DNA from: Betaproteobacteria bacterium
GTDB taxonomy: Bacteria > Pseudomonadota > Gammaproteobacteria > Burkholderiales > SG8-41
Assembly (NCBI GenBank): GCA_016868015.1
Contig: VGIF01000001.1
Span: forward strand, 1 to 61,659
Reading direction: 5' to 3'
DNA length: 61,659 nucleotides
The notes below the pieces were generated by a model. The model was not told the DNA's origin. It saw nothing but the letters and a program-made list of their open reading frames with translations, and did not search any database. The translations under genes and the position numbers were made by a program. Numbering within the stretch: position 1 is the first letter of the stretch; each line of letters opens with the position of its first letter. Below, one piece after another: positions 1,281-57,649 of the stretch.

Positions 1281-1314
1281 TTAACTGATTGATTTTATTA
1301 TACTTTTTATATTT
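1281..1314 (-). repeat. AT-rich dispersed element (ATE) copy 1, IHF-consensus core
   Basis: Minus-strand reading is aaatataaaaagtataataaaatcaatcagttaa. Core AATCAATCAGTTA fits WATCAANNNNTTR. Lies between the comEC stop and the MCP start. Confidence 0.7.
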
Positions 1315-3751
1315 CATCCGGATCCGGCACGGGATCGTCCGCGAGCGCGTTTTGCCAATAGCGGCGGTAGTTTGCGCGATGCGGGGTGACCCTGATGGTC
1401 TCGCCAGCCCCCATCAGCAAGGTCACCGCGCCATCGCGGTCGGTGCGATAGACATGGGCGCCGGCCAACAGATAGCGTGCCTGCACGTCCACGTGCGGAT
1501 GGCCGAACCGGTTGCGATAGCCGATCGGATAAATCGCAATGCGCGGATCGACCGCGCGCACGAATTCGGGCGTGGACGAGGTGTTGCTGCCATGATGCGG
1601 CACGATCAGCACTTGCGCGCGCAGCGCGTCGCGCTCGGCGGCAACCAACTGCAGCTCAGCGCGCGCTTCGATGTCGGCCGCAATCAGCACCGCATGCTTC
1701 GCGGTTGCGATGCGCAGCACGCAACTGCGGTTGTTGTCCTTGATCGTGGTATCGGCGTAACTGTCGCGCGGCGGGTGCAACAACTCGAAACGCACGCCAT
1801 CCCAATCCCAGGACTGCCCGGCGAAACAACGTGCCGCGTGCGCCGCTTCGAACGGCAGCGGATCCAGATCGGGCAAGGAACTCAATAACTGCCTCACTGG
1901 CACCGCTTGCAGCACCGAGGAGGCGCCGCCGTAGTGATCGATATCGTCATGGCTCACCACCAGCGCATCGAGCGCCTTGACGCCGCGCGCGCGCAAGTAC
2001 GGCACCACCATGCGGTTACCGGCATCGGCTTGCGGGCCGTACGCCGGCCCCGCGTCGAACAACAACGCATGATTTCGCGTGCGTGCCACCACCGCCAGGC
2101 CGTGGCCGACGTCGAGCACGGTGAGCTGCAATTGCCCCTCCGGCAGCGGTGGCGGTGCGGCCAGGAACAACGGCAAAAACGCGGCGAGTCCGGCCCAGCG
2201 CAACGGAAAACCGCGCGGCAACAACAATATCGCCACGCCGCCAAGCGCAAGCGCAACGCTCCACGGCGGCGGCGCGTGTTGCTGCCACACCGCCGCCGGC
2301 AAGCGGCTCATCCATTCGAGCACGCCGCCGCAGCCCGCCATCACCCCATGCGCGAGTTGCAACACCCAGTCAAACGGCAACACCATGCCGATCAAGGTGA
2401 GCGGCACCACACCCAGGCTCACGACCGGAATCGCCAGCGCATTGGCCAGCGGCGAGATGATCGACACCTGCTGAAACATCGCCAGCAGCGCCGGCACCAG
2501 CGCCAGCGTTACCGCCCATTGCGTCTTGGCCCAGGCGTAAAGCCAATGCGGCCGGCCAATGCGCGCGACACTCACATACAGGATCACCGCCACCGCGCCG
2601 AACGACAGCCAAAACCCCGGTGCCAGCACCGCCCACGGGTCAATCAACACCACCACCAGCAAGGCCACGCTGAGCACCGCGGACGCCGCGCCCAGGCGAT
2701 TCATCCACAGCGCCGCCGCCATCACCGCGAGCATGTAGAGCGTGCGCTGCGCCGGCACCTCAAAACCGGCCAGCAGCGTGTATAAAAAAGCCGCCAGCAA
2801 TCCCGCCAGCACGGCCGCCTTGCGCGCGGGCAGCCGCAGGGTCAAGCGCGCGCTACGCCGCCACAAGGCATAAGCCAGCAGGAACACCAAGCCCGCGATC
2901 ATGGTGACGTGCAGCCCCGAAATCGACATCAAATGGTTTACGCCGGTGCGGGTAAAGGTTTGCCATTGATCGGGGGCAATCGCGCGCTGATCGCCAATGG
3001 CGAGCGCCGCCAACACCCCGGCATAGGCGCGCTCGGGCAAGGCCTGCAAAATTCGCGTGCGCAATTTTTCGCGCGCCGCCTGCACCCAGTACGCGGGCTG
3101 GGCTACCAGCGCGTCGATGCGGCGGCCGCTTTTCGGGCGTACCGTGCCGGTGGCGCGGATATTGCGCTCGATCAGCCATGCCTCGTAGTCAAAGCCATGG
3201 GGATTGGCCGAGCCGTGCGGCCGCCGCCAGCGCACCGTGAGTTGCCAACGTTCGCCCGGCTTGAGCTCGGGCAGCGAACCGCGCTCGGCGTTTTTGGCCA
3301 CACTGCCCCACCAGCTCAGCGCGATACGCCGGGGCACCACGGCATCGGCTGTGATCACCCGTTCCACATCGAAGGTAAAACGCACGCTGCGCTCGTAGTG
3401 TTGCGGCAGACCGGCAATAACACCGACGATTTGCACATCGCGGCCTTCCATCGCGGCCGGCAGCGCATCGGCAAGCCGCCAATCCGCACGCAGCGCCGCC
3501 CACCAAAACCCGCCAACCACACAGGCGAGCGCAAGCAGCGGCACCCAACACAGGCGCCGCGCGCGCGTCAGCCAGGCCAACAGCAGCAGCAGCGGCACCA
3601 GCATCCACCCCGGTGATGACGGCAACGCGGCTTGCAACTGCAGCAGCGCGCTACCCGCGACAAACAGGACAATAAAAAACGGCACGAAGGGTGCACCCAA
3701 AACAAAGGGAAACGGGGACGAGGCGGCGCAAATCCCGCTACAATAATCCAC
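1307..3751 (-). CDS. comEC: DNA internalization-related competence protein ComEC/Rec2 (membrane domain plus metallo-beta-lactamase domain)
   Basis: 814-aa ORF, polytopic hydrophobic N-terminal two thirds. C-terminal MBL motifs [11 protein letters not shown] and [15 protein letters not shown] start at 3751. Confidence 0.85.
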
Positions 3752-4324
3752 ATGTTACGCAAGTATTTGCGGCGTGTGCTGCCCAGTCACGGCACCATAC
3801 GTGACAATCGTTACATTGCCCGCTTCGGCACGCGCCTGCAGCATCACAATCTATGGCATTTGCATCGCCGTTCGGTGGCGGGCGGCGTGGCGGTGGGGCT
3901 GTTCGCGGGGCTGATCCCGGGCAGCAACCCGGTGCAGTTCACCGGCGGCGCATTGCTCGCCGTGGCGCTTAAGGTGAATTTGCCGATTTCGGTGCTGGTG
4001 ACGCTTTATTCGAACCCCTTCACTATTCTGCCGCTTTATTTCCTGGCATTTAAGTTGGGGCAATTGCTGATGTTCTCCGGCAATAGCGAATTGCCATCAC
4101 TGCCCGCGGAGTTCAGCGGTACTGCCTTGTTAAGCCACTTGCCCGAGGCGTTTAACTGGGTAATCAGCGTCGGTAAGCCGCTGCTGCTGGGCCTGCCGTT
4201 GCTGGCAACGATTCTCGCGGCCATCGGCTACTTTGTCACCGATTGGGCTTGGCGCATGGGCGTGTGCTACCAATGGCGCGTGCGCGCGCGTAAACGCGCA
4301 CGGCGCGCGCCGCGCGCGGAATAA
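3752..4324 (+). CDS. DUF2062 family membrane protein
   Basis: ATG at 3752 (MLRKYLRRVLPSH...RFGTRLQHHNLWHLHRRSVAGGVAVGLFAGLIPG), typical of the DUF2062 N-terminus. Divergent from comEC. Confidence 0.7.
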   Translation: MLRKYLRRVLPSHGTIRDNRYIARFGTRLQHHNLWHLHRRSVAGGVAVGLFAGLIPGSNPVQFTGGALLAVALKVNLPISVLVTLYSNPFTILPLYFLAFKLGQLLMFSGNSELPSLPAEFSGTALLSHLPEAFNWVISVGKPLLLGLPLLATILAAIGYFVTDWAWRMGVCYQWRVRARKRARRAPRAE

Positions 4325-4330
4325 TCCGCC

Positions 4331-4353
4331 GCGCGCGGCTTGCATCCGCGCGC
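4331..4353. terminator. GC-rich hairpin between convergent genes (candidate bidirectional terminator)
   Basis: gcgcgcgg-cttgcat-ccgcgcgc: perfect 8-bp stem, 7-nt loop, between the DUF2062 stop (4324) and the Bug stop (4366). No clear U-tract. Confidence 0.4.
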
Positions 4354-4365
4354 AGTCGGGCCGGC

Positions 4366-6267: not shown

Positions 6268-6334
6268 CACAGATTTCACAGATGAACACAGATTAACTGC
6301 GGAAAAATCTGCGTCAATCCGTGAAATCAGCGTG
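6268..6334. repeat. REP-like palindromic element, family A (CAGAT/CTGCGT type)
   Basis: Arms cacagatttcacagatgaacacagattaac and atctgcgtcaatccgtgaaatcagcgtg are imperfect inverted repeats. Related copies at 11415, 12712 and 39976. Confidence 0.7.
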
Positions 6335-6337
6335 AAA

Positions 6338-6372
6338 TATAAGTATCTGATTTTATTGAATATTTTGAAACA
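6338..6372 (-). repeat. ATE copy 2
   Basis: Minus-strand reading is tgtttcaaaatattcaataaaatcagatacttata. Core has one mismatch (ATCAG). Overlaps the 5' end of ORF 6332..6703. Confidence 0.7.
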
Positions 6373-8634: not shown

Positions 8635-8703
8635 GCGGATGATTTCTTTTCGTTGGGTGAAGTGTACTGCAATTCACTAAGGCGCGGGGTAAACTCGCCC
8701 GCC

Positions 8704-9705
8704 ATGCAATTAAGTCTGCACATTCCGCACTTGATTCCGCCGCGCGAAGCGGCTGCGGTGTGGGCGGCGCTGGATGTGCCCTCGCTCAAACGCATGCTCG
8801 CCCGCGCGCGTTACAGCCGCAGTGCGCCGCTGGACGATGCGGCGGTAACGTGCGAAAGCTTCGGTATCGGCAGCGATCGATCGGGCTCAATCGCGCCGCT
8901 CCTCGCGCGTGCCGATGGCGTTAAAGTGGACGACGGTTATTGGCTGTGTGTCACGCCGGCGCACCTGGAAACGCGCCATCATACACTGGTGCTGGCCGAC
9001 CCGGCGCTGCTGCAACTTACCGCCGAGGAATCGCAAGCGCTTGCCGCAACGCTGGCCGAGCACCTGCGCGCCGAGCAGCTCACGCTGCACGCGCCGCGGC
9101 CCGACCGCTGGTACTTGCGCTGCGATCAGCCACCGGCGATCAGCACATCGAGCCTCGCCAGCGTCGCCGGCCACGGCATCGATGCCTTTTTGCCCAAGGG
9201 CGCGGATGCCCTGCGCTGGCACCGGCTGCTCACTGAAATGCAAATGCTGCTGCACGCGCACCCAGTCAACGAAGCGCGCGAAGCCGCAGGGCGCGTGCCG
9301 GTCAACAACGTTTGGATTTGGGGCGGCGGTACGCTGCCTGCGCCTTTCGCTGCGCCGTTTCAATCGGTTTGGAGTAACGATGCGTTGGTGCAGGCGCTGG
9401 CGCGGCACGCGGGCATCGCCACACACCCTGCCGTGGCGCACCTCGCCGCGGCGGAACTGGGCGCGGGTCATCATTGGTGTTCGTATCATGCGCTCACGCC
9501 GCTCATGCGCCGGGGTGATCTCGCCGCATGGGGCGCCGCTGTGATCGCGCTCGATCGCGATTGGTTCCAGGCGTTACGCGCGGGCTTGCGTGCGCGCCAG
9601 ATCACGCGCGCCACGCTTGTCAGCAACACCCTCGGCGCCACCCACCGCTTTGATTTCCGCCATTGGGATGCTGTAAAAATATTTAATAAAATCAAATACT
9701 TATAA
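8704..9705 (+). CDS. conserved hypothetical protein; C-terminus read out of the AT-rich element
   Basis: ATG 8704 (MQLSLHIPHLIPP). GC3-rich throughout. The last codons KIFNKIKYL and the TAA stop are encoded by ATE copy 3. Confidence 0.6.
   Translation: MQLSLHIPHLIPPREAAAVWAALDVPSLKRMLARARYSRSAPLDDAAVTCESFGIGSDRSGSIAPLLARADGVKVDDGYWLCVTPAHLETRHHTLVLADPALLQLTAEESQALAATLAEHLRAEQLTLHAPRPDRWYLRCDQPPAISTSSLASVAGHGIDAFLPKGADALRWHRLLTEMQMLLHAHPVNEAREAAGRVPVNNVWIWGGGTLPAPFAAPFQSVWSNDALVQALARHAGIATHPAVAHLAAAELGAGHHWCSYHALTPLMRRGDLAAWGAAVIALDRDWFQALRAGLRARQITRATLVSNTLGATHRFDFRHWDAVKIFNKIKYL
9674..9705 (+). repeat. ATE copy 3
   Basis: taaaaatatttaataaaatcaaatacttataa, core AATCAAATACTTA is a perfect WATCAANNNNTTR. 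Ends 3 nt before the recJ GTG start. Confidence 0.75.
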
Positions 9706-9708: not shown

Positions 9709-11412
9709 GTGCTCACGATTACCCAGCGCCTCATCGATGCGTCAGCCGCCGCCGCGTTAAGCGCGCAAGGCGTGCACCCCTTGCTTGCCCGGGTCTACGC
9801 CGCGCGCGGCATTGCCAACCCCGCGCAGCTCGACACCACGCTCGCGCGCTTGCACGCACCGCAAGCAATGCTCAATCTCGAGCGCATGGCAGCACTCATC
9901 GCCGATGCGATAGCCGCGCGTGAAAAATTACTGATCATCGCCGACTACGATGCCGACGGCGCCACCGCCTGCGCGGTGGGTTTGCGCGCAATGCGCGCGA
10001 TGGGCGCAACCATCGACTACTTGGTGCCCAACCGCTTCGAGTACGGCTATGGCTTGACGCCGCAGATTGTGCAACTCGCCGCGCGCGAAATAGCGCCAGC
10101 GGTGATTATCACCGTCGACAACGGCATCGCCAGCGTCGAGGGCGTGGCCGAAGCCAATCGCTTGGGCATCAAGGTGCTGATTACCGATCACCATCTGCCC
10201 GGCGAGGCTTTGCCCGACGCGTGGTGCATCATCAATCCCAATCAGCGCGGCTGCGGGTTTCCGAGTAAGCATCTTGCGGGTGTAGGGGTGATGTTTTACC
10301 TCATGATGGCTTTGCGGGCCGAATTGCGGCAACGTCACAACACCTCACGCCTCACGCCTCACGCCTCACCTAATCTAGCCACGCTGCTCGACCTCGTCGC
10401 ACTCGGCACCGTCGCCGACGTGGTGCGGCTGGATGACAACAACCGTATCTTGGTGCAGCAGGGGTTGCAGCGCATCCGCGCCGGGCGCGCGCAACCGGGC
10501 ATTAGCGCCTTATTGCGCGTGGCGGGCCGTGACCCGGCGCGCGCCGGCACCTACGATTTGGGTTTTGCCGCCGGGCCGCGCTTAAACGCCGCAGGGCGAT
10601 TAACCGACATGTCGCTCGGCATCGAGTGCTTGATCACCGACGACGCCGCGCGCGCGCAAGCCATCGCGCACGAGCTCGATGCGCTAAACCGCGAACGCCG
10701 CGCCATCGAAGCCGATATGCAGGAAACCGCGCTCGCCGCGCTGGAACAATCCGCCGATGCAAGCGGCTACACCCTCAGCCTCTACGACGATCAATGGCAC
10801 CAGGGCGTGATCGGCATTGTGGCTTCGCGCCTTAAGGATAAATTCCATCGCCCGGCGGTGGCGTTCGCGCGCGGCAACGACGGCGAAATCAAAGGCTCCG
10901 GCCGGTCGATCCGCGGCCTGCATTTGCGCGACGCGCTCGACCTGGTATCGAAACGCGCGCCGGGGCTGATTTTGCGTTTCGGCGGTCACGCCGCGGCGGC
11001 GGGCTTGACGCTGCGTGAGCCCGATTTTGCGCGCTTTCGCGATGCGTTCGAAGCGGTGGTACGCACCCTGCTCCGCCCCGCGGATTTGGAGCGCGAAATC
11101 GAAACCGACGGCTCGCTGCCGCTGGAACACGCCACGCTCGAAGCCGCGCACGCCCTGCGCGGCGGCATCTGGGGCCAAGGTTTTCCGGAGCCTGGGTTCA
11201 CCGATACTTTTGAAGTCGCGCAGCAGCGCGTGGTCGGTGAACGGCATCTGAAATTGCGTTTGCGGCGCGAAGGGTGTGTGTTCGATGGCATCCTGTTTGG
11301 TCACTGCAATCCGTTGCCGGCGCGCATACGCGCGGTGTATCGCTTTAGCGCCAATGAATACAACGGGGTATCGTCGACGCAGTTGGTGCTGGATCATTGG
11401 GAAACCCCTTAA
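9709..11412 (+). CDS. recJ: single-stranded-DNA-specific exonuclease RecJ
   Basis: DHH motifs IIADYDADGATA, ITVDNG, LITDHH, plus DHHA1 GGHAAAAG. GTG start 9709. Confidence 0.92.
   Translation: MLTITQRLIDASAAAALSAQGVHPLLARVYAARGIANPAQLDTTLARLHAPQAMLNLERMAALIADAIAAREKLLIIADYDADGATACAVGLRAMRAMGATIDYLVPNRFEYGYGLTPQIVQLAAREIAPAVIITVDNGIASVEGVAEANRLGIKVLITDHHLPGEALPDAWCIINPNQRGCGFPSKHLAGVGVMFYLMMALRAELRQRHNTSRLTPHASPNLATLLDLVALGTVADVVRLDDNNRILVQQGLQRIRAGRAQPGISALLRVAGRDPARAGTYDLGFAAGPRLNAAGRLTDMSLGIECLITDDAARAQAIAHELDALNRERRAIEADMQETALAALEQSADASGYTLSLYDDQWHQGVIGIVASRLKDKFHRPAVAFARGNDGEIKGSGRSIRGLHLRDALDLVSKRAPGLILRFGGHAAAAGLTLREPDFARFRDAFEAVVRTLLRPADLEREIETDGSLPLEHATLEAAHALRGGIWGQGFPEPGFTDTFEVAQQRVVGERHLKLRLRREGCVFDGILFGHCNPLPARIRAVYRFSANEYNGVSSTQLVLDHWETP
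10343..10369. repeat. heptanucleotide tandem repeat (CCTCACG) ~3.9 copies inside recJ
   Basis: cctcacgcctcacgcctcacgcctcac, in frame, encodes TSRLTPHASP in a linker just before the conserved LLDLVALGTVADVV. Confidence 0.85.
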
Positions 11413-11414
11413 CG

Positions 11415-11520
11415 CTTCACCGCAGAGGCGCAAAGGCGCAGAGAACCCCCGCAGAGTAATACCAAAACGTTTTTGATTTTCTCTGCGTAATCTCTGCGCC
11501 TCTGCGCCTCTGCGGTGAAG
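11415..11520. repeat. long palindromic REP/MITE-like element (family A variant)
   Basis: Arms cttcaccgcagaggcgcaaaggcgcagaga (11415-11444) and tctctgcgcctctgcgcctctgcggtgaag (11491-11520) are 29/30 complementary, spaced by 46 nt. Confidence 0.8.
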
Positions 11521-11592
11521 TTTCAAGGTTTTCGATGTTCCCATCAGGTATAATCACGCTTTCAAGAAATCACCGCACGAAGTCACAGCTTT

Positions 11593-12697: not shown

Positions 12698-12711
12698 CGA
12701 CGAAAATCTTA

Positions 12712-12885
12712 GACGCAGATTTACGCAGATGAACGCAGATTGACAACTACCATGTCTTTCCCGCGAAGGCGGGAACCCATGCAGTGACTCAAGTGCCGCT
12801 GTGTTATAGGTTCCCGCCTCTTTGGCGTGAAATTCGGGAACGACGTATGGGGTTTAATCTGCGTAAATCTGCGTAAATCTGCGTC
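12712..12885. repeat. nested REP elements: family A arms enclosing a family B pair
   Basis: Outer arms gacgcagatttacgcagatgaacgcagattgac and taatctgcgtaaatctgcgtaaatctgcgtc. Inner gtctttcccgcgaaggcgggaaccca and ggttcccgcctctttggcgtgaaattcgggaacgac. Confidence 0.75.
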
Positions 12886-12906
12886 AAAAAAGAAGTCGGA
12901 GTTTAA

Positions 12907-14382
12907 ATGGACGACACCAACCAAATCATCGAAGAACGCCGCGCCAAGCTAAAGGCCCTGCGCGCCAAGGGCGTGGCCTTTCCCAACGATTTTGTGCGCG
13001 AGCACTATGCCGGCGACATCGTCGCGCAACACGGCGGCACCGACAAAGACGCGCTGGAACAGCAAAACGTCACGGTAGCAGTGGCCGGCCGTATTATGTT
13101 GAAACGCGTGATGGGCAAAGTGTGTTTCGGCACCATCCAGGACAGCAGCGGCCGCATTCAGATTTTTGTTTCCGCCAACGACAGCGGCGCTGACACCGTC
13201 GAAGCGTTTAAACATTACGACATCGGTGACATCGTCGGCGTCAACGGCGCGCTGTTCTACACCAAAACCGGCGAGTTGACGGTGCGCGTGAAAACGCTGC
13301 GCCTGCTCACCAAAGCGCTGCGTCCGTTGCCCGAAAAATTTCACGGCTTGACCGATCAAGAGGTGAAGTATCGCCAGCGCTATGTTGACCTCATCGTCAA
13401 CGAAGACACCCGCGCCACCTTCCGCAAGCGTTCGCTGATTATGCAGGAAACACGTAACTATCTGATTTTAAACAACTATTTAGAAGTCGAAACGCCGATG
13501 ATGCAGCCCATCCCGGGCGGTGCGGCGGCGCGGCCGTTTGTCACGCATCACAACGCGCTCGACATGCAACTTTATTTGCGCATCGCGCCGGAGTTGTATT
13601 TAAAGCGTCTTGTCGTCGGCGGTTTTGAAAAAGTATTCGAAATCAACCGCAATTTTCGCAACGAGGGCATGTCCACGCGCCACAACCCCGAGTTCACCAT
13701 GCTGGAGTTTTACTGCGCCTACATGGCAGTCGGCGGCATGATGGATTTTATCGAGGCGCTGATTCGCCACGTAGCACTCGCCACCGGCTCGACCACAGTG
13801 ACGTATCAAGGCAAGGCAATCGATTTCGCCAAACCGTACGCACGGCTCACCATCCCCGATGCCATCCGCAAATATCATCCGGATATCGGCGAGGACGTGT
13901 TGAACGACAAAATCAAACTTACCGCCAAGTTAAAAAGTATGAATATCGAACCGCGCGCCAACGACGGCTTGGGCGCGCTGCAATTGACGCTATTTGAAAA
14001 CACCGTCGAAGCAAAGCTATTCGAGCCGACGTTTTTGATCGACTACCCAGCGGAAGTCTCCCCGCTCGCACGCCGCAGCGACAAAAACCCGGACATCACC
14101 GAGCGCTTCGAGCTCTATATCGCCGGGCGCGAAATCGCCAACGGCTTTTCCGAGCTGAACGACCCGGAAGACCAAGCCGAGCGCTTCATGGAACAAGTCA
14201 AACAAAAAGACGCCGGTGACCATGAGGCCATGCACTACGACGCCGATTACATCCGCGCGCTGGAATACGGCCTGCCGCCGACGGCGGGCGCGGGTATCGG
14301 CATCGACCGGCTGGTGATGCTGTTGACTGACAGCCCGTCGATACGCGACGTGATTTTGTTTCCGCATATGCGGCCGGAGTGA
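12907..14382 (+). CDS. lysS: lysine--tRNA ligase (class II)
   Basis: 491 aa. Class II motifs [20 protein letters not shown] and [19 protein letters not shown]. Follows prfB as in many proteobacteria. Confidence 0.95.
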
Positions 14383-16644: not shown

Positions 16645-16663
16645 CGCGCCACCAGCGATAAAA

Positions 16664-16696
16664 CGTAAGTATCTGATTTTATTATTTTTTTTAAAA
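16664..16696 (-). repeat. ATE copy 4
   Basis: Minus-strand reading is ttttaaaaaaaataataaaatcagatacttacg. About 70-100 nt upstream of copA, in the opposite orientation. Confidence 0.7.
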
Positions 16697-18998: not shown

Positions 18999-19057
18999 GA
19001 TTTGCGTGTTTTCCCGACGCTCAACGCCAAACGCTCAACAACCATAGGAGCAACAGG

Positions 19058-19273
19058 ATGGAAAACCTCACCCTCGCCATCAAGGGCATGACCTGCATGG
19101 GCTGCGTCGCCAGCGTCACGCGCGTATTAAAGGCGACCGCTGGCGTTAAAGACGCACAAGTGACGTTGCAGCCCGCGCAAGCCCAGGTGCAATACGATGG
19201 CGCGCAGACCAATCCGGCGCAGCTTAAAGCCGCGGTGGAAGATGCCGGTTTTGAAGCGAGCGAGCCGGCTTAA
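19058..19273 (+). CDS. copZ: heavy-metal-associated (HMA) domain copper chaperone-like protein
   Basis: 71 aa with GMTCMGCVASV. RBS aggagc is upstream. Immediately downstream of copA. Confidence 0.8.
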   Translation: MENLTLAIKGMTCMGCVASVTRVLKATAGVKDAQVTLQPAQAQVQYDGAQTNPAQLKAAVEDAGFEASEPA

Positions 19274-37652: not shown

Positions 37653-37656
37653 ATCC

Positions 37657-37744
37657 GTAGGGCGGGAGAAACGAAGTGTATCCCGCCGTGCTGCGATGGC
37701 GCGCCCGCGTAACGGCGGGATACGCTACGCTGCTCCCGCCCTAC
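37657..37744. repeat. REP-like nested palindrome, family C
   Basis: Outer gtagggcgggag/ctcccgccctac, inner gtatcccgccgt/acggcgggatac. Confidence 0.7.
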
Positions 37745-39975: not shown

Positions 39976-40036
39976 GACGCAGATTTACGCAGATTAACCT
40001 CGAAAACATCTGCGTCAATCTGCGTTAATCTGCGTC
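39976..40036. repeat. REP-like palindromic element, family A
   Basis: gacgcagatttacgcagattaac ... atctgcgtcaatctgcgttaatctgcgtc. Confidence 0.75.
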
Positions 40037-40057
40037 AAAAATTTTTCGTTTTAGAAC

Positions 40058-42034
40058 ATGCAAACCCCATACCCCGCCCTCTTCGCCCCCTACACGCTGG
40101 CCGGCAAGCGCCTCAAAAACCGCATCGTGCACGCGTCGATGACCACGCGAATGGGCGAAAAGGGGCGTGTCAACGAGCGGCTTATCAACTACTACGCCAA
40201 CCGCGCCAAAGGCGGTGCCGCGATGATCGTCACAGAGCCGCTGTCGATGGCGAGCCATCAGCACATTCCGTACAAAATCGTCGTCTACGACGATAGCGAA
40301 CTCGATGGTTTAAAGCGCTGGGCCGATGCGGTGGAGTCGCATGATTGCCGTTTGCTCGGGCAAATTCAAGACCCCGGCCGCGGGCGCCACGAAGCGGGGC
40401 GCAATCCGGAAGCGGTCGGGGCTTCGGCGCTACCCGATGATTTAAGCGGCACCGTGCCGCGACCGCTCACCGTTGCTGAAATCCGCCGCATGAACGATGA
40501 GTTCGCGCAATCGGCGGCACGGCTCAAACGCTGCGGCTTTAGCGGCGTCGAAATTTCCTCCGGCCACGGCCATTTGTTTCACCAGTTTTTGTCGCCGTGG
40601 TCGAACACGCGCGAAGATGAATATGGCGGCGATATCGGTGGACGCACGCGCTTGTTGAGCGAAATGATCGCCGCGTTGCGCAGCGCTTGCGGCCGCGATT
40701 TTATCCTCGGCATCAAGCTGCCGGGGGATGACGGCGTGCCGGGCGGCATCGGGCCCGAAGAGGCCGCGCGCATCGCCGAGCATCTCACTGCGAACAGGCA
40801 ACTCGATTACGTCACCTTTGCGCAAGGCAGCCACGCGCGCTCGCTGGAAATGCACGTGCCGGACGATCACGGGCCGCGCGGTGTTTATCTGCCGCTGTTT
40901 CGCCAACTGCGCCCGGCGGTGAACGGGCTGCCGTTGATCGCGCTGGGCCGCATCACCGACCCCGCCGAGGCCGATGCGGTGATTGCGCGCGGCGACGCCG
41001 AACTGGTGGCGCTCGGCCGCGCGCTGGTGGCCGACCCGGCGTGGCCGTTAAAAGCCGCGCAGGGGCGCGCGCACGACATTCGTTATTGCGTCTCCTGCAA
41101 CAACTGCTGGTACCTGGGCGCGGCGTTTCATCAATCGCTGTGTTGCGACAACAACCCGCGCGTGGCGCACGCCGACGAAGTCGATTACCGGCCCGCACGC
41201 GCGTTAGTCAAAAAACGCGTGCTGATCGTCGGCGCCGGTGTCGCCGGCATGGAAGCGGCGTGGACCGCTGCCGCGCGTGGGCACGCGGTGACCGTGTTTG
41301 GCCGCAGCGCTGAAATCGGCGGCAAGGCGCGGCTGCGCGCGCAGCTTCCCGGCGGCGAGGCATTGAGCAGCGTTTACGATTATCAGCACGCCGCCGCACT
41401 GCGCGCCGGTGCACGGTTCGAATTGGGCATCGAGGCGACGCCCGCCGATATCATCAAGCTCAAACCCGACGCGGTGATACTCGCCACCGGGGCGAGCATG
41501 GTGGCGCCGCGCTGGCTGCCGCGTGATGCGCGCGAACTGGTGCCCGATTTGCGCACGGCGATGCGCGAGCTCGCGCGCATCAAAACGCGGCAACGCGGCA
41601 CCGCGATGATCTACGACATGGATCAATCCGAAGGTACGTACGCCGCCGCCGAGCGCTTGCACCAATTGTTCGAGCGCGTGCTGATCGTCACCCCGCGCGA
41701 TGTCATCGCCGAAGAAACCGCCATGGTCACGCATCAGGGCATCAATCGGCGGCTAAGTAAAAAGGTTATAAAAATCAAATATTTACATGAGATTCGCTGG
41801 AGCGAGTCGATGGCCAGCGGCGTGCTCGAGCTGGTCCATGTTTACAGCGGCGCGATGCTGCGGGTGGCTAACCTTGCGCTACTCGCCTACGCCACGCCGC
41901 GCGCCCCTAACATCGAGCTGCTGGCGCCGCTGCGTGATGCTGGAATTTCCGTACAGTTGATCGGCGATTGTGCGGCGCCGCGCGCCGTAATGGCGGCAAC
42001 TCGCGAGGGGCATGCTGCAGGGCACGCAATCTGA
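40058..42034 (+). CDS. FadH-like NADH:flavin oxidoreductase (OYE domain, 4Fe-4S motif, FAD/NAD(P) domain)
   Basis: 658 aa. OYE-type N-domain. CVSCNNC-x11-C cluster motif. VLIVGAGVAGMEAA dinucleotide fold. Contains an in-frame ATE copy at 41755-41789. Confidence 0.85.
   Translation: MQTPYPALFAPYTLAGKRLKNRIVHASMTTRMGEKGRVNERLINYYANRAKGGAAMIVTEPLSMASHQHIPYKIVVYDDSELDGLKRWADAVESHDCRLLGQIQDPGRGRHEAGRNPEAVGASALPDDLSGTVPRPLTVAEIRRMNDEFAQSAARLKRCGFSGVEISSGHGHLFHQFLSPWSNTREDEYGGDIGGRTRLLSEMIAALRSACGRDFILGIKLPGDDGVPGGIGPEEAARIAEHLTANRQLDYVTFAQGSHARSLEMHVPDDHGPRGVYLPLFRQLRPAVNGLPLIALGRITDPAEADAVIARGDAELVALGRALVADPAWPLKAAQGRAHDIRYCVSCNNCWYLGAAFHQSLCCDNNPRVAHADEVDYRPARALVKKRVLIVGAGVAGMEAAWTAAARGHAVTVFGRSAEIGGKARLRAQLPGGEALSSVYDYQHAAALRAGARFELGIEATPADIIKLKPDAVILATGASMVAPRWLPRDARELVPDLRTAMRELARIKTRQRGTAMIYDMDQSEGTYAAAERLHQLFERVLIVTPRDVIAEETAMVTHQGINRRLSKKVIKIKYLHEIRWSESMASGVLELVHVYSGAMLRVANLALLAYATPRAPNIELLAPLRDAGISVQLIGDCAAPRAVMAATREGHAAGHAI
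41755..41789 (+). repeat. ATE copy 11, inside a coding sequence
   Basis: taagtaaaaaggttataaaaatcaaatatttacatg, core AATCAAATATTTA is perfect. Read in frame as LSKKVIKIKYLH. Confidence 0.7.
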
Positions 42035-42955: not shown

Positions 42956-44101
42956 GTGAACGTGCGGTCGACAACGACCACCGGGATCACGCAAAATCGG
43001 GGTTACGTCCCAAACCCCGAGGAGTTTGCCTTGTACAACGACCCCATCACCCACGCCACACTCGGCGATCAAGCCGCCAGCGGCGCGCGCCGCTATCGCC
43101 GCGTGATCGACGCGCACATGCATTGGTACCCGCAAGAATTCGTCAACCTGATGATCAAAAAAGGCCCGGCCCACGGCGCCCAGATGGGCGAGGATAAAAA
43201 CGGCAACCCGGTGGTGCTGTCGGTGCCCGACTGCACGCAAACCTCGGTGATGCGCAAAACCATGACCAACCTTGATGACATCATTAAGGACATGCAAAAA
43301 CGCAAGTGCGACACCTACGCGCTATCGATGACCAACCCGTTGGTGTATTGGGCGCCCGCGGGCTTCGGCCTGGAACTGTGCGCCGCGCACAACGATGCCT
43401 GCGTCGCCGCGCATAACAAACATCCGGACAAGTTTTACGGCTGCATCATACTGCCGATGCAAGACGTCAAACTCGCCGCGCAAGAACTCGAGCGCATGGC
43501 AAAGTTCCCGTGCATGCGTGCGGTGTTCATCGCCGAACACATCCTCGGCAAAAACCTGCACGAAAAAGAATTCTGGCCCATATACGAGCGCGCCGAAGGG
43601 CTGGGCCTGGCGATCGAACTCACCAACCTCTACCCCACCGGCCCCGAGCGCATGAAGGATTACTTCATGATCAACACGCTGGGTAATCCGCAAGAAGCCG
43701 GCTACGCCGCGATGAGTTTGATCTGCGGCGGGGTGATGGATGCTTTCCCCAAGCTGGAAGTGTTTTTGCCGCACGCCGGCGGCACCTGGCCGTGGCTGGT
43801 GGGCCGGCTCGATCTCGCGCGGCATGTGAGCAAAGAGCTCTCGCACATGAAAAAATCCGGCTACGACTATCTGCGGCGCTTTCACTACGACTTGATCACC
43901 CACGACGCGAAAATCATGCGCAACCTGATCGACCTCGTCGGCGTGGATCGCATCGTCGCCGGCACCGACTTCCCGCAAGGCATGTCGGTCAAGCAGCCAG
44001 TGGATTTTGTGGAATCGATACCGGGCCTCACGCATCAGGAGCGCGAGATGATTTTGTGTGATAACCCGGCGCGGTTGTTGGGCATTAAAACTTCGCTGTG
44101 A
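42956..44101 (+). CDS. amidohydrolase-2 family protein (ACMSD-like decarboxylase/hydratase)
   Basis: VIDAHMHWYPQEF, HAGG, GTDFP motifs. GTG start 42956 is uncertain. Confidence 0.8.
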   Translation: MNVRSTTTTGITQNRGYVPNPEEFALYNDPITHATLGDQAASGARRYRRVIDAHMHWYPQEFVNLMIKKGPAHGAQMGEDKNGNPVVLSVPDCTQTSVMRKTMTNLDDIIKDMQKRKCDTYALSMTNPLVYWAPAGFGLELCAAHNDACVAAHNKHPDKFYGCIILPMQDVKLAAQELERMAKFPCMRAVFIAEHILGKNLHEKEFWPIYERAEGLGLAIELTNLYPTGPERMKDYFMINTLGNPQEAGYAAMSLICGGVMDAFPKLEVFLPHAGGTWPWLVGRLDLARHVSKELSHMKKSGYDYLRRFHYDLITHDAKIMRNLIDLVGVDRIVAGTDFPQGMSVKQPVDFVESIPGLTHQEREMILCDNPARLLGIKTSL

Positions 44102-44197
44102 AGGGTGAAGGGTGAAGGGTGAAGGGTGAAGGGTGAAGGGTGAAGGGTGAAGGGTGAAGGGTGAAGGGTGAAGGGTGAAGGGTGAAGGGTGAAGGGT
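44099..44197. repeat. heptanucleotide microsatellite (TGAAGGG) ~14 copies
   Basis: 99 nt of uninterrupted tgaaggg units. The first unit contains the TGA stop of the amidohydrolase gene. Confidence 0.95.
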
Positions 44198-44255: not shown

Positions 44256-45209
44256 CTAATCGAGCTTAATCCCCGTTTCGCGCACCAGCTTCGCAAACTT
44301 CGCCTGCTCGGCTTTGATAAAGCGCGCGAACTCTTCCGGCGTGTTGGTCGTTGGCGAGGTGCCTTGCGTCGCCAGCACCTGAGGTAAATCGCTGGTCTTG
44401 GCGATCTTGTTGATCTCGTCCGAGAGCCGTTTGACGATCGGCGCCGGCGTGCCCGCGGGTGCGAGAAAACCGTTCCACAATTCCACTTGCATCGCGGGGC
44501 CGCCGGATTCGGCCATGGTGGGTAAATCGGCGTAGGCTTCAACACGTTTGGCCCCCGTCGTCGCCAACCCGCGCAGGCGCCCCGCGCGCACGTGCGCCAC
44601 TACCGTACCGATGCCGCTAAACGCGATATTGACTTGCCCCGCCAGCAAGTCCACCGTCGCCGGCGCAGCGCCTTTATACGGCACATGGATCAAATTTACG
44701 CCGGCGTTTCTGCCAAACATGAAACCGGCGAGGTGCTGAATGCTGCCGCTGCCGAGCGATGCATAGGTCACCGTGCCGGGTTTGGCTTTGGCGACGTTAA
44801 TCAACTCAGGCACGCTGCGCGCCGCGACTGACGGATGCACTACAAGCACCAGCGGGTTCAAGGTGCAAATCGAAATCGGCGCAAAACCTTTTTCCGCGTT
44901 GTACGGCAGCTTGGCGTACACGTAGGGATTGATGCTGATGGTGGACACGTTGGTTTGGATAAACGTGTAACCGTCGGGCGGCGCCTTGGCGGCGGCTTCC
45001 ATCGCGATGATGCCGGCAGCGCCGCCGCGGTTGTCGACCACGACTTGCTGGCCAAGCGCGTCACCCAAGCGTTGCGCGTAGGCGCGGGCGACGAAATCGG
45101 CGCCGCCGCCGGGCGGGACGGGGACAATCATGCGCAAGGGGCGGGAGGGGAATGTTTGCGCCAAAGCGGCAACCGCTGGCAACCAAACCACGCATACCGC
45201 CATCGTCAT
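44256..45209 (-). CDS. Bug-family (TctC-like) substrate-binding protein
   Basis: MTMAVCVVWLPAVAALAQTFPSRPLRMIVPVPPGGGADF. The ORF-track extension upstream is read out of REP family B. Confidence 0.88.
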   Translation of the reverse strand: MTMAVCVVWLPAVAALAQTFPSRPLRMIVPVPPGGGADFVARAYAQRLGDALGQQVVVDNRGGAAGIIAMEAAAKAPPDGYTFIQTNVSTISINPYVYAKLPYNAEKGFAPISICTLNPLVLVVHPSVAARSVPELINVAKAKPGTVTYASLGSGSIQHLAGFMFGRNAGVNLIHVPYKGAAPATVDLLAGQVNIAFSGIGTVVAHVRAGRLRGLATTGAKRVEAYADLPTMAESGGPAMQVELWNGFLAPAGTPAPIVKRLSDEINKIAKTSDLPQVLATQGTSPTTNTPEEFARFIKAEQAKFAKLVRETGIKLD

Positions 45210-45314
45210 TCTGGCGCAGGCCAGAATCCAGGTTGTACGCCGATGCGCAGCATCAAATTTCAGGCCCCGCGGGGCAAGTTTACCACCTGGATCCTGGCTT
45301 TCGCCGGGATGATG
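45205..45314. repeat. REP family B-like inverted pair
   Basis: gtcattctggcgcaggccagaatcca and tggatcctggctttcgccgggatgatg (the ILACARMT / ILAFAGMM pseudo-peptide type). Confidence 0.6.
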
Positions 45315-45327
45315 GCGTGAAACCAAC

Positions 45328-46287
45328 TTAATCTCCACGACTCAACTTATCGAGAATATACGGCACCGGCTTCCCCGCAAAATGCGCCTCCAAATTCGCC
45401 AGCACCTTGCGCCCGCGCTCCTCGCGCACCTCCAGCGTGTGCGAACCAATATGCGGCGACATCACCACATGATCGAACTCACGAAACACCTGCGGCACGC
45501 GCGGCTCGTCCCAGAACACATCAAGCCCCGCGCCCGCGATGCGTTTCTCGCGCAAGGCGTCGATCAAAGCCGCTTCCTCCACGATCGCGCCGCGTGCCAC
45601 GTTGATCAGAAACCCATTGGGGCCGAGCGCCTGCAGCACCGGCGCCGTGATCAGCCCGCGGGTCTCGGGCGACAGCGGGCAGCACACCAGCAGCACATCG
45701 GCCGCGCGCGCCAGTGCCTCCAGGTTATCGAAGTACGGGTAGCCGACATTTTTCTTGCGCGGTCCGAAGTAACTCACCGGCATGCCGAAGGCTTCGATGC
45801 GCGCCGCCACGAATTGGCCGATGCGCCCAAGCCCGACGATGCCGCAGTGTTTTTTACGCAAGTCGCGGCCGGGCGCGGCGAGCTCTTTTTCCCAACCGCC
45901 GGCGCGGATGTAACGGTCGCCGCGCGTGATGCCGCGCATCAAGTCGATCATCAATCCCAGCGCGACATCGGCCACGACCTCGGTGATGTCGTCCGGCGTG
46001 TTGGCGCAAATAATGCCGCGCGCCTTAGCCGCATCGAAATCGAGACTCGCGCGCGGCGCACCGAAGCTTGCGATGATTTCGAGCTTGGGCAGCGCGTCCA
46101 TGGTTGCCGCGTCGCAGCCGAGTAAGCCCGTGGTTACGGCGCCGCGCACGCGCGGGCCGATCTCGCGCAGCATCGCCGATCTATCGCTCGCGAGCCACAG
46201 CTTGTGCACGATGTAGCGCCGCTCCAACTCCGCAATGGTGGGCGCGTAGGTGCGATGCAAAATCAGAACTTCCGGCTGCTTACTCAT
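45328..46287 (-). CDS. D-isomer-specific 2-hydroxyacid dehydrogenase (glyoxylate/hydroxypyruvate reductase-like)
   Basis: GIVGLGRIGQFVA NAD fold, NVARG, catalytic SPHIGSHT. Confidence 0.88.
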   Translation of the reverse strand: MSKQPEVLILHRTYAPTIAELERRYIVHKLWLASDRSAMLREIGPRVRGAVTTGLLGCDAATMDALPKLEIIASFGAPRASLDFDAAKARGIICANTPDDITEVVADVALGLMIDLMRGITRGDRYIRAGGWEKELAAPGRDLRKKHCGIVGLGRIGQFVAARIEAFGMPVSYFGPRKKNVGYPYFDNLEALARAADVLLVCCPLSPETRGLITAPVLQALGPNGFLINVARGAIVEEAALIDALREKRIAGAGLDVFWDEPRVPQVFREFDHVVMSPHIGSHTLEVREERGRKVLANLEAHFAGKPVPYILDKLSRGD

Positions 46288-50243: not shown

Positions 50244-50261
50244 GCTAACCCTCCCAGACAT

Positions 50262-50288
50262 GTCGTTCCCGCGAAGGCGGGAACCCAT
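50262..50288. repeat. REP family B, single copy
   Basis: gtcgttcccgcgaaggcgggaacccat, the same unit as at 12754 and 54957. Confidence 0.7.
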
Positions 50289-50312
50289 AACACAGCATCA
50301 CTCGCGCGTGCA

Positions 50313-54901: not shown

Positions 54902-54956
54902 GTCATTTCACCTCTACGCACATCAAGTTCTTGTCCATCGTTGATCCACCACTGTG

Positions 54957-55035
54957 TCGTTCCCGCGCAGGCGGGAACCCATAACACCGTTTCCACTTAA
55001 GTCAGCCCATGGGTTCCCGCCTGCGCGGGAACGAC
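54957..55035. repeat. REP family B inverted pair
   Basis: gtcgttcccgcgcaggcgggaacccat ... atgggttcccgcctgcgcgggaacgac, perfect 27-bp arms, 25-nt spacer. Confidence 0.85.
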
Positions 55036-55068
55036 ACCAGTCGAAAGTTGTTTTCGTATTCTTATCGT

Positions 55069-56433
55069 TTATCCGGCAAGCAATCCAAGCAATTTCGAGA
55101 CATCACTTGCCGTTTCAAAATTATCAATTAAATCAAATACTTGCGTTCTTTTCGCCGAAGATAGCCGCGCCGCCGTCATGTTATTGAACTTGGCCACCAC
55201 CTCACTATCACTCATCGGATTTTTCGCGTGCCCCTTGGGATAAATCACTTCGTGATCCAACACCGCGCCACCCGTCAAGCGCACCCGCACACGCCCCGGC
55301 GCGGCTTGCGGATATACCGCATTGTGCTTCGCATCCTCCGCCACTTTCACCTTGGCCATCAGCTTCAACATCAGCGGGTCGTGCAAGCGCGCCTGCGAAA
55401 ACGTTTGCGCATTGAACTCGCCGTCGCGCAGCACACTCACCACGCAAAACGGCATGCTGTGGTCCGCGGTTTCGTGCGTGGTCGGCGCCCAGCGGTTGGC
55501 GTCCTTGCCCATCATGTTTACCGCCGCCGCATAGGCGCCGACTTGAATTTCCTCGATGTCGTCAAGCTTCACGCGATCGCGCAGCGCCAGCGCCGCGTAA
55601 ACCGCCGACTGGCCGTGATAACACACCGGCAACCCTTTGATATGCGTTTCACAAATCCAATAACGCCCTTCGGGGATCGGCCAATCGTGGTGGCCGATAA
55701 TCTCCCACAAACCGCCCTCGCCTTCGAACACCGCGCTCGGGCCGGTGAACCCATCTTGCGCCAGCATCGCGGCGAACACCGCGTTGCGCGAGGCGTTGGC
55801 CCCCGCGCAGCCTTTCCAATTCGACAAATGCCCGCGCCGCGCCTGCGCCAGCGTCATGTTCGGCCCCAGCGCCAGCGCGATGGCATTGCCGAGTTGCGCG
55901 CGGTCGAGTTTCAACAAACGCCCCACACCCATCACGCAGCCCAAAATGCCATACACCGGCTGATCCCAGCCCTTGGTGTTGATGTCGATGGCATCGGCGA
56001 AACTGCAATACACGTCGTACGCCAGCACCATCGCTTCAAGCAGCGCTTTCCCATCGCAGCGCGCACTTTCCGCCACCGCCACTAAACCGGAAATCATGTC
56101 GCTCGGATGGCCGCGGCTTTTCCCCAAAAACGTGTCGCTGATGTCGAGCAAGCGCGTCATTACACCGTTGGCGAACGCCGCCGCTTCGGGCGTGGTTTTG
56201 ATGGGGCTGCCCCACACCGTCGCCGGCGCACTGGCACTCGCGCGCTCGGCGGACTTGCGCGCGAGCACGCTGGTCGGGTGATCGTAAGCGGCAATCGCGC
56301 AGGTCAACGCATCGAGCAACCTTAGCTTGGTCGCGTGCAGCACTTGCGGCGGCAGCACGTCGTAGCCTTTTCGCCCGGCGACGTTGAGCAGCAGCGTGGT
56401 GGTTGCATCGAATGACGTTGCGGCTTGATCCAT
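55069..56433 (-). CDS. MmgE/PrpD family protein (second copy)
   Basis: ATG 56433 after AGGAG. PrpD-like body. The C-terminal segment QVFDLIDNFE is encoded by ATE copy 14. Confidence 0.85.
   Translation of the reverse strand: MDQAATSFDATTTLLLNVAGRKGYDVLPPQVLHATKLRLLDALTCAIAAYDHPTSVLARKSAERASASAPATVWGSPIKTTPEAAAFANGVMTRLLDISDTFLGKSRGHPSDMISGLVAVAESARCDGKALLEAMVLAYDVYCSFADAIDINTKGWDQPVYGILGCVMGVGRLLKLDRAQLGNAIALALGPNMTLAQARRGHLSNWKGCAGANASRNAVFAAMLAQDGFTGPSAVFEGEGGLWEIIGHHDWPIPEGRYWICETHIKGLPVCYHGQSAVYAALALRDRVKLDDIEEIQVGAYAAAVNMMGKDANRWAPTTHETADHSMPFCVVSVLRDGEFNAQTFSQARLHDPLMLKLMAKVKVAEDAKHNAVYPQAAPGRVRVRLTGGAVLDHEVIYPKGHAKNPMSDSEVVAKFNNMTAARLSSAKRTQVFDLIDNFETASDVSKLLGLLAG
55115..55145 (+). 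repeat. ATE copy 14, inside the 3' end of a minus-strand CDS
   Basis: tcaaaattatcaattaaatcaaatacttgcg, core AATCAAATACTTG is perfect. Confidence 0.7.
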
Positions 56434-56596
56434 ACCCTGCTCCTGCAATGTTGGCTGTGACGCGCGGATTGAAAACAGTTCTTGAGCTTACCCAAATCCG
56501 CGCCGTCATTGGTGTCAGCGTCCATACCCTGTTTACCCTGCAGGCGCCGGACTCGAATACCGCGCGGATGAGTCTGCCGGTCGATGGCTCGTGGTT

Positions 56597-57337
56597 TTAA
56601 TTCGAGCCTAACAGCAAGCCCTGCTCTTGAACCGGCACCCCGCGCCCCGCTTCGCGCAACGCCGCCCACAGGCTGCAATTCAAATTAAGCAGCACCGGCT
56701 TATTGAATTGCGCCTCCAGCGGCGCCACCGCATGCGTGCTCAGCCAGCGGCCGCCGGGCAACACCAGCGCTTGCGCTTGCGGCGCGGCCTGCAGTGCGCC
56801 ACGGCCCAGGTTGATCGCAAGCTGCATGCCATCGGACGCTTTTAACTGGGCGTTTTCCGCCATGGTGGCGCCGCGCGCCTGGCGGCCGACCACTTCGATG
56901 CCGGTTAATTGGAGATAAGCCGCCACCGCATCATTCAGCGGCTCGTGCCAACGCGTGGCGAGCGCCACTTTTTTGGCGTTCAGATGCTTGGCCGCGGCGG
57001 CAATGGCTTCGAGGTCGGTGTCGAAGGTAACGCCGGTGCGTTTTTTGACTTCGGCTTTCATCGCCAGCACCCGCTCGCGCCCGAGCGCCGCCGACACCGG
57101 CACCCCGGTCAGCACGATGCGATTGGCACCGGCATGCGCGAGCTCCTCGACGTGTTTCCAGAATAGCGGCATCTCATGATCCACCGCCGCTGTTGAATAG
57201 TCGGTGATTTCCAGATTGGCGAGCATCAACATCACGCCATCGGGCGCGAAGCGGTAAAACTGATAGGCGACATTGTCGACTATCGGATGCGGCGTGATAT
57301 AGCCCAGGCGGTACCAGGGTTCGGTCAGTGGTTTCAT
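56597..57337 (-). CDS. Asp/Glu racemase superfamily protein (arylmalonate decarboxylase / maleate isomerase-like)
   Basis: ATG 57337 (MKPLTEPWYRLGYITPHP...), ~246 aa. Paralogous in type to 28235..28960. Confidence 0.65.
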   Translation of the reverse strand: MKPLTEPWYRLGYITPHPIVDNVAYQFYRFAPDGVMLMLANLEITDYSTAAVDHEMPLFWKHVEELAHAGANRIVLTGVPVSAALGRERVLAMKAEVKKRTGVTFDTDLEAIAAAAKHLNAKKVALATRWHEPLNDAVAAYLQLTGIEVVGRQARGATMAENAQLKASDGMQLAINLGRGALQAAPQAQALVLPGGRWLSTHAVAPLEAQFNKPVLLNLNCSLWAALREAGRGVPVQEQGLLLGSN

Positions 57338-57616
57338 GGTGTTGGGGTATTTGAACCCGTCAGGATAAAAGCTCAGTATAAGCGCGTCGCCGCGCCTTGC
57401 GTAATACGGCGGGTCCACCTTAATACCACGCAAACGCCGCGACGATGTAACACCCGAGCCTTCGGGTTGCGCATCGCACACGGCTCAAGCTTTAGCGCCA
57501 TCAACGCGCTGAACATGCCGTTGCGTGCGGACCAGAAAAACTTCAACCTGCCAGCCCCGCTTTCATGCGAGGGCTGCGCCGCCGCCTACGCGCGAGCCAG
57601 CTCGCCACCGTTGGCT

Positions 57617-57649
57617 TAAATAAAATATTCAATTAAATCAAATACTTAC
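57617..57649 (+). repeat. ATE copy 15
   Basis: taaataaaatattcaattaaatcaaatacttac, perfect core. About 90 nt upstream of the cNMP-binding gene. Confidence 0.75.

Follow-up and report, generated by a model that had tools for sequence, protein, structure and literature searches.

In E. coli, RIP/RIB repeats disperse a consensus site for integration host factor (IHF) through extragenic DNA, often at gene ends; RIP lies inside BIME-1, and the repetitive extragenic palindromes (REPs) are mobilised by RAYT. The Correia elements of Neisseria are abundant small betaproteobacterial repeats that also have an IHF site; they are 100–150 bp long, carry terminal inverted repeats and TA duplications, and insert. 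One report refers to BIMEs and REPs as repeats that bind proteins (PMC2817692), and another describes small mobile repeats carrying IHF sites (PMC2229807). High-affinity IHF sites such as H′ of lambda attP are single sites in a recombination or promoter complex. The DNA uptake sequences (DUS) of Neisseriaceae and uptake signal sequences (USS) of Pasteurellaceae have no orientation bias and unusually even spacing, and evolve by point mutations rather than insertion (PMC1939737); copies in coding regions lie at less constrained residues (PMC2817400), and lineage dialects track phylogeny (PMC3630211). Here we analysed a 61,659-nt stretch of an uncultured Burkholderiales genome (contig VGIF01000001.1, positions 1–61,659; the window) and the AT-rich element of about 35 bp that it carries in fifteen near-identical copies. 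The explanation that we prefer, and to which we give about an even chance of being right, is that selection maintains these copies, at regular intervals, as an array of sites where IHF or an IHF-like nucleoid protein docks.

The element shares features with each of the described systems. Like RIP/RIB, it repeats an IHF consensus in dispersed extragenic DNA, often at gene ends; unlike them it has no flanking REP palindromes (on either side the composition is that of the background), its copies came about in place through substitution, and it is no RAYT-mobilised unit. It differs from Correia elements and other MITEs (small transposable elements that carry inverted repeats) in its length of only ~35 bp, in having no inverted repeats, duplications or insertion signature, and in having vertical orthologues. 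With DUS and USS it has in common free orientation, even spacing, an origin by point mutation, copies in coding sequence and dialects, but it is longer, AT-rich, four-fold sparser, mostly non-coding and built like an IHF site. The element is undescribed in Rfam and in the literature that we searched, where queries for AATCAAATACTTA, AAATCAAATAC and IHF repeats in Burkholderiales-type genomes returned nothing relevant; at Rfam gathering thresholds tRNA alone was detected, and the element corresponded to no known RNA family. The closest descriptions are those of dispersed IHF-site repeats (RIP/BIME-1, Correia), whose palindromic or transposon context the element does not have, and it evolves like an uptake sequence.

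The window has a G+C content of 60.8%. An initial annotation had listed fifteen positions for the element, and the element was present at 15/15; the sites were right, while the listed starts were offset by 0–16 bp from the aligned element (e.g. 30093 for 30097–30130). A search for the 18-mer AATNAAATCAAATACTTA with up to three mismatches gave 14 matches in the window against 0.07 expected, and none of the shuffled sequences reached 14. With a 34-bp position weight matrix (PWM) the fifteen copies scored 41–55 bits and the next sites 26 and 25 bits, with about zero matches in Markov shuffles. A second matrix, neutral with respect to the T/A dialect of the core described below, gave no match of 28 bits or more among 20 shuffles and added a sixteenth, degenerate copy at 13451–13484 on the minus strand; the earlier count of fifteen stood but had missed this copy in lysS. 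The consensus reads (T)AAAAATATCAATWAAATCAAATACTTAYR followed by about eight AT-rich bases, and the element can be written as the 37-mer ATAAAAATATCAATAAAATCAAATACTTATAAAATAC. Eight of the fifteen copies lie on the plus strand and seven on the minus strand, at a density of one per 4.1 kb, which agrees with the annotated frequency of about one copy per 4 kb in both orientations.

The initial annotation had also recognised the published IHF core in the 3′ part of the element, and this was borne out: the core WATCAANNNNTTR was perfect in ten copies and had one mismatch in the other five. The window contains 11 perfect matches to WATCAANNNNTTR, against 0.92 expected, and 10 of these 11 are copies of the element. 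The A/T tract ahead of the core, noted earlier as typical of strong IHF sites, lies in the same register as at lambda attP H′, whose sequence we confirmed in lambda-like phages: the A-run, ATCAA and TTA of the element share a 27-nt register with the A6, TATCAA and TTG of H′, and the A-run is located 15–11 nt upstream of ATCAA in the copies, compared with 15–10 nt for the A6 of H′. The likeness to H′ comprises the A-tract, W-A-T-C-A-A, four bases and T-T-R, the register, the asymmetry and the extent of ~35 bp. The two differ in that H′ is a single site and the element a genome-wide array of near-identical copies, with an additional conserved ATAC and AATWAA and with the T/A dialect.

To define the borders of the element we used 74 copies from GC-rich genomes, whose flanks are unbiased because they were retrieved with the 18-mer. 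Information content was above background from −11 to +25 around this 18-mer (~35–37 bp) and at background on both sides beyond. Neither the 74-copy profile nor a repeat search revealed dyad symmetry, a hairpin, terminal inverted repeats or any conservation of the flanks. An asymmetric element of ~35–37 bp suits a heterodimer that covers about 35 bp of DNA. In a second sample of 38 copies, chosen without the 18-mer, the A-run, the C-A of the core and the T-T-A were invariant or nearly so, and the sixth core position (R) was A or G. A minor-groove reader tolerates A/G and T/A swaps such as those at the variable core positions. Taken together, the anatomy of an IHF site is supported for the element by its sequence.

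In the explanation that we prefer, each ~35-bp copy would dock the heterodimeric, DNA-bending nucleoid protein IHF, or a protein of this clade that resembles it, with the A-tract on one arm and W-A-(T/A)-C-A-R, four bases and T-T-A on the other. Bound IHF would bend the DNA into a sharp U-turn. The sites would act at the level of DNA, in either orientation and about every 4 kb of the chromosome, and would not be gene-specific switches. Copies would settle in available non-coding spacer, and where none is at hand coding sequence would be recoded by substitution. The role would be architectural, in nucleoid folding or at the boundaries of supercoil domains or transcription units, with possible local side effects on nearby promoters. 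The anatomy, the statistics, the distribution, the in-situ origin, the preservation in orthologous spacers, the confinement to one clade and the even spacing within this window are results of the analysis; IHF as the protein, the bending at these sites and the purpose of the array we infer. The free orientation, the use of all spacer types and the intragenic copies, set out below, favour an architectural role and suggest that the element works on DNA rather than in gene-specific regulation. Genes were called by the G+C content of third codon positions (GC3) and checked with Pfam; the sixteen copies, with their scores in the first PWM, are the following.

1278–1311, minus strand: copy 1, over the comEC stop and ~90 nt upstream of the likely MCP start; co-directional, sense; 44 bits; orientation identical in the L027 orthologue
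6336–6369, minus strand: copy 2, between the HhH-GPD glycosylase stop and the start of open reading frame (ORF) 6365; co-directional, antisense to both; 51 bits
9673–9706, plus strand: copy 3, forming the last 10 codons and stop of ORF 8653–9705, with the recJ GTG 3 nt on; co-directional spacer, sense; 53 bits
13451–13484, minus strand: copy 3b, degenerate, within lysS with no indel relative to orthologues; 26 bits (32 bits with the dialect-neutral PWM)
16662–16695, minus strand: copy 4, between the acyl-CoA synthetase stop and the copA start; co-directional, antisense; 53 bits; orthologues in L116 and L316
19281–19314, minus strand: copy 5, beginning at the bamD stop; convergent spacer with the copZ-like ORF; 41 bits
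21995–22028, plus strand: copy 6, in the pgeF–yhhQ spacer; co-directional, sense; 54 bits
25619–25652, minus strand: copy 7, its A-tract encoding the last cheB codons and stop; convergent; 41 bits
26688–26721, plus strand: copy 8, between the cheB start and the amidohydrolase stop; co-directional, antisense to both; 48 bits
30097–30130, plus strand: copy 9, in the TctC/PhnD divergent spacer; 49 bits
36381–36414, plus strand: copy 10, in the TctC/acyl-CoA dehydrogenase divergent spacer, 33 nt ahead of the ATG; 53 bits
41756–41789, plus strand: copy 11, inside the FadH-like ORF 40058–42034, in frame, codons 567–577; 42 bits
46313–46346, minus strand: copy 12, over the ACAD stop and 26 nt ahead of the 2-hydroxyacid dehydrogenase ATG; co-directional, sense; 51 bits; orthologues in L102 and L187
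48863–48896, minus strand: copy 13, terminating on the ACAD ATG (TACTTATG); co-directional, sense; 45 bits
55114–55147, plus strand: copy 14, in coding sequence at the 3′ end of the PrpD/MmgE-like gene 55069–56448 (minus strand), antisense; 51 bits
57619–57652, plus strand: copy 15, in the divergent spacer between an Amdase-like and a cNMP-binding gene; 55 bits

The copies thus lie among chromosomal housekeeping and catabolic genes (comEC, MCP, recJ, lysS, acs, copA, bamD, rluD, pgeF, yhhQ, cheB, TctC/Bug genes, ACADs and PrpD-like genes), and some of them occupy an entire spacer. Many touch a stop codon since the ends of the element read TAA on both strands. The variant AAAGGAATC of copy 13, which is also found in L187, gives a Shine-Dalgarno-like GGA.

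The intragenic copies reveal how the element arises. Copy 41756 lies in a 658-aa FadH-like enzyme, for which an alignment of 31 homologues (most of them also 658 aa) was gapless at this place, with 7 of 11 residues different (LSKKVIKIKYLHEIRW versus LSAKGIEVMTLSQPRW; LSKKVIKIKYLH versus LSAKGIEVMTLS); this copy is particular to the lineage of the window. Copy 55114 falls in a conserved C-terminal helix region of the PrpD/MmgE-like protein, where TQVFDLIDNFE aligned with KSVIEMISGLE of paralogues and homologues with no indel. In L316 another part of lysS was recoded to hold the element (VRCKYLFLLTKS). In all, codons were replaced one for one, with no indels, in four gene/lineage combinations, and since the intragenic copies have no indel relative to homologues they arose in place by substitution. 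The element is thus formed in situ by point mutation, even in essential genes, and not by the insertion of a mobile element.

The comparison of orthologous spacers led to the same picture of descent. Syntenic relatives were available at ~65–72% nucleotide identity (L027 and L102) and at 58–80% protein identity (L116, L187, L314 and L316). The element was present in the equivalent spacer of L027 at 1278 and 6336, of L102 and L187 at 46313, of L187 at 48863, of L116 and L316 at 16662, and of L314 at 19281; the copy at the 3′ end of bamD was absent from L116 and was not detected in L316. At least one relative keeps the element at five of the six window sites that lie in syntenic stretches, an outcome that the initial annotation had itself set down as refuting a dispersed element. 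Orthologous motifs were 59–85% identical and the noncoding flanks 12–42%. Derived variants (AAAGGAATC, ATAAGTT and AATAC) were common to orthologous copies, ATAAGTT occurring both in window copy 19281 and in the L314 copy at the bamD 3′ end. A motif that is kept while its flanks diverge, together with these common variants, indicates vertical descent under purifying selection. Copies also turn over: the L027 counterpart of copy 6336 was inverted and lay elsewhere in the spacer. At the place of copy 19281, L116 has an additional CsoR/RcnR-like gene.

These data bear directly on the proposal that the element is a small mobile or copied unit spreading by insertion, for example a module like RIP/BIME, a MITE like Correia or an element like REP. 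The many near-identical spacer copies, often lying exactly between stop and start, the orthologous copy that is inverted and displaced, the REPIN-like palindromes of this genome and the Y1 transposase of a relative would all suit such a unit. Its expected marks were not found: the element is just ~35 bp long, with no terminal inverted repeats, hairpin, target duplication or conserved flanks, and no larger repeat units, inverted repeats or REP partners linked to it were found in the window. A REP or REPIN is a GC-rich imperfect palindrome that forms a hairpin, whereas the element is AT-rich and has no self-complementarity. REPIN-like elements lie within 80 bp of only one of the 15 copies, with no systematic adjacency. 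Considering also the gapless, codon-for-codon intragenic copies and the derived variants inherited by orthologues, we regard insertion of a mobile element as highly improbable, and the module like RIP/BIME or Correia that the initial annotation had suggested was not upheld.

The REPIN-like GC-rich palindrome, TGTCGTTCCCGCG(A/C)AGGCGGGAACCCAT, occurs at 12753–12795, 50261–50293 and 54954–55037. One instance is a perfect inverted pair, its 29-nt arms separated by 26 nt, and lies ~77 bp away from copy 55114. In L314/L315 a Y1_Tnp (RAYT-like) transposase gene lies between acs and bamD.

We then asked how the copies are placed relative to genes. The initial annotation had assigned eleven of the 15 copies to the 5′ regions of genes; the count holds, but the position is unspecific, as most of these copies also lie against the stop of the gene before, and copies 41756 and 55114 are in coding sequence, not in 5′ regions. 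The eleven reflect the tight packing of genes, and no association with promoters follows from them. Among ~87 copies from the window and related MAG (metagenome-assembled genome) loci, 26 were sense and 21 antisense in co-directional spacers, 19 were in convergent and 9 in divergent spacers. Occupancy did not differ with the type of spacer, at 20% for co-directional, 29% for convergent and 16% for divergent spacers (P = 0.17), and the next start codon lay anywhere from −1 to over 1000 nt away. This free orientation and the use of every spacer type indicate a function at the DNA level, not one of RNA or of a promoter.

A reading of the element as a common promoter or regulatory cassette, be it an UP element, a promoter or an operator by which the genes downstream are driven or co-regulated, would be in line with the position of 11 of the 15 window copies within ~100 nt upstream of a start codon, with the TAnAAT-like hexamer immediately 3′ of the element in several relatives and with the resemblance of the AT-rich tract to an UP element. 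We consider it a very remote prospect: the orientation relative to genes is random and the convergent spacers are at least as occupied as the divergent ones, start-codon distances are not fixed, one orthologous copy is inverted, three copies are intragenic and the neighbouring genes are unrelated in function. The suggestion of a regulatory cassette in the initial annotation is accordingly not retained. In a scan for the sigma-70 consensus only one of the 15 copies overlapped a (weak) promoter-like match, and three 20-kb scans gave 2, 4 and 5 promoter-like matches, at or below the shuffle means of 6.2–6.6. A terminator scan found one hairpin adjoining a copy, with totals at the level of shuffles. 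Inspection by eye revealed no consistent −35/−10 hexamers in the element in either orientation. Sites for Fur, FNR, ArgR and DnaA, and Ter, dif and parS, were likewise rejected by eye, the element being direct and asymmetric and too dense for a specific regulon.

The fifteen copies are separated by gaps of 1066 to 6990 bp, 4024 bp on average, with a coefficient of variation (CV) of 0.44. This spacing is more even than chance would give: such a low CV had P = 0.0006 under uniform placement and P = 0.003–0.006 when 15 of 52 spacers were taken at random. The intragenic copies 13451, 41756 and 55114 occupy the largest gaps, which would otherwise be 7.0, 9.9 and 8.7 kb long. In E. coli 1042 IhfA binding regions were reported (PMC3333857), and the density of the element, one per 4.1 kb, resembles that of these regions. 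Cumulative GC skew drops monotonically over 1–61659, and the orientation of the element has no strand bias relative to the skew. The monotonic skew places the window on one replication arm, with no origin or terminus in it.

Even spacing, together with origin in situ, is also what would be seen if the element were a motif of the DUS/USS kind, for which a competence receptor prefers element-bearing DNA and point-mutated copies spread by uptake bias and homologous recombination (molecular drive). The 8+/7− orientation, the spacing CV of 0.44, the in-situ intragenic copies (including that in lysS), the T/A dialect and the confinement to one clade with variable density agree with it, and comEC, the sole competence gene seen, is located in the window; comEC is, however, widespread. 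Under an uptake motif the exact match to the IHF H′ architecture would have to be coincidental; by hand we put the odds of this at ~1% for an AT-rich 30-mer. Known uptake cores have 9–12 bp and occur about once per kb, compared with ~30 informative bp and 0.26 per kb here; three of the 16 copies are coding, against 35–65% for DUS/USS (PMC1939737). The PWM scores are bimodal, with no halo of partial copies. An uptake motif thus seems unlikely to us.

The distribution of the element is narrow. In a one-genome-per-species scan, the matches listed were mostly in uncultured Betaproteobacteria/Burkholderiales MAGs, several of them with many matches whose flanks agreed with the extended consensus; chance matches occurred in AT-rich genomes too. 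With the dialect-neutral PWM the density was 0.26 per kb in the window, 0.19 in L316, ~0.1 in L116, L187, L188 and L314, 0.06 in L190 and 0.05 in L311, and 0.0035 per kb across 573 kb of betaproteobacterial rluD loci from more distant relatives. A metagenome scan with RluD gave relatives of up to 63% identity, almost all without the element, which serve as an outgroup. Searches of plasmids and phages with the consensus (blastn) gave only chance-level matches in AT-rich replicons, and a scan of viral contigs found no array in any phage but single copies, most of them in AT-rich contigs. The element family is therefore confined to one clade, within which the core has a T/A dialect.

Several of these observations weigh against docking of IHF, and we gather them here. 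The canonical T of WATCAA was T in 24 and A in 14 of the 38 copies, and relatives mostly have AAAAACAA where the window has AAATCAA, so that this T is broken. The ATAC in the N4 spacer and the AATWAA are conserved like the canonical positions, though IHF is not known to read them. An ordinary requirement for IHF would not predict the restriction to one clade with a 5-fold spread in density (0.05–0.26 per kb). A tblastn search with E. coli IhfA and IhfB found no ihfA or ihfB match in the window or the 310 fetched loci; we assumed the presence of IHF because of its generality in Proteobacteria. The regular spacing, finally, was measured in a single 62-kb window. The contrast between a clade-restricted element and a universal IHF, with the variable T and the conserved positions that IHF is not known to read, keeps our confidence in IHF docking no higher than even.

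Some of these observations would be expected if the likeness to IHF sites were partial or incidental and the element bound another clade-specific protein, for example as an H-NS-like nucleation site or as the site of an asymmetric or tandem binder. An element of one clade, nearly absent from the 573 kb of other betaproteobacterial rluD loci, conserved beyond the IHF consensus positions and with A for the canonical T in many relatives, fits such a binder. Its left half, TCAATAAAAT, agrees at 8 of 10 positions with TCGATAAATT, the published high-affinity motif of H-NS. An H-NS filament cannot spread, however, from a lone AT island of 35 bp in GC-rich DNA, and IHF explains the three-part register, the 35-bp extent and the asymmetry with no extra assumptions. 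We therefore find another binder rather doubtful.

If the copies are IHF sites, this chromosome would carry, roughly once per 4 kb, a bending site that is under strong selection and almost identical to the others, and selection would have recoded lysS, the FadH-like and the PrpD-like genes to host one. It would be an unusually clean natural system of regular nucleoid-protein sites, of interest for domain boundaries, compaction and transcriptional insulation, and a sequence-defined marker for experiments on chromosome architecture. If they are not, the in-situ origin, dialects, even spacing and clade restriction would point to a new uptake-like or clade-specific genome-marking system. That the element is a self-recognition or drive motif like a DNA uptake sequence, or the target of a clade-specific chromosome-organising system, in this uncultured Burkholderiales clade is, to our mind, improbable; such a system would overwrite conserved housekeeping residues by substitution, as in lysS, and hold a ~4-kb spacing, and would be the first not from Neisseriaceae or Pasteurellaceae, its 'word' being AT-rich, IHF-like and ~30 bp long. 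In either case annotation of the element as a transposable repeat or promoter motif is unwarranted.

Other features were seen along the window and in the loci retrieved. The exact 18-mer AATWAAATCAAATACTTA abuts the 3′ ends of tRNAs (...CCA|ATAAAATC...) in genomes L006, L014, L032 and L084 and in viral contigs L201, L219, L226, L280 and L304. These are unrelated Alpha- and Gammaproteobacteria and viral contigs, and the tRNAs are those for Arg, Val and Lys. The arrangement resembles an arm site of the IHF type, conserved among integrative elements that target tRNAs.

A second repeat family with a 10-bp periodicity, (A)ATCTGCGT(A/C)A, forms two to three tandem units at 6279–6319, 12709–12741, 12847–12890 and 39980–40041, in several spacers: beside copy 6336 and upstream of both lysS and the FadH-like gene. 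It may serve a regulator as an operator array. The divergent region at 25160–25330, between a LysR gene (24187–25158) and a small ORF (~25331–25560), is unusually AT-rich and contains a weak element-like sequence of 25 bits at 25255. Another small ORF, at 19054–19261 on the plus strand downstream of copA, encodes a CopZ-like HMA-domain protein and is conserved in L116 and L316.

At 44098–44197, in the convergent spacer between the genes at 42956–44101 (plus strand) and 44256–45338 (minus strand), the heptamer GTGAAGG forms a perfect tandem array of 14.3 copies. Long imperfect hairpins directly follow the recJ stop (11407–11528, 38-nt arms) and the stop of an ACAD gene (37657–37744, 33-nt arms), the former with similar sequence in two contigs of the MAG CAMBGJ01 (L080 and L102). 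ARAGORN called a 95-nt 'tRNA-Gln' at 37616–37710, which is probably a false positive since Rfam does not support it.

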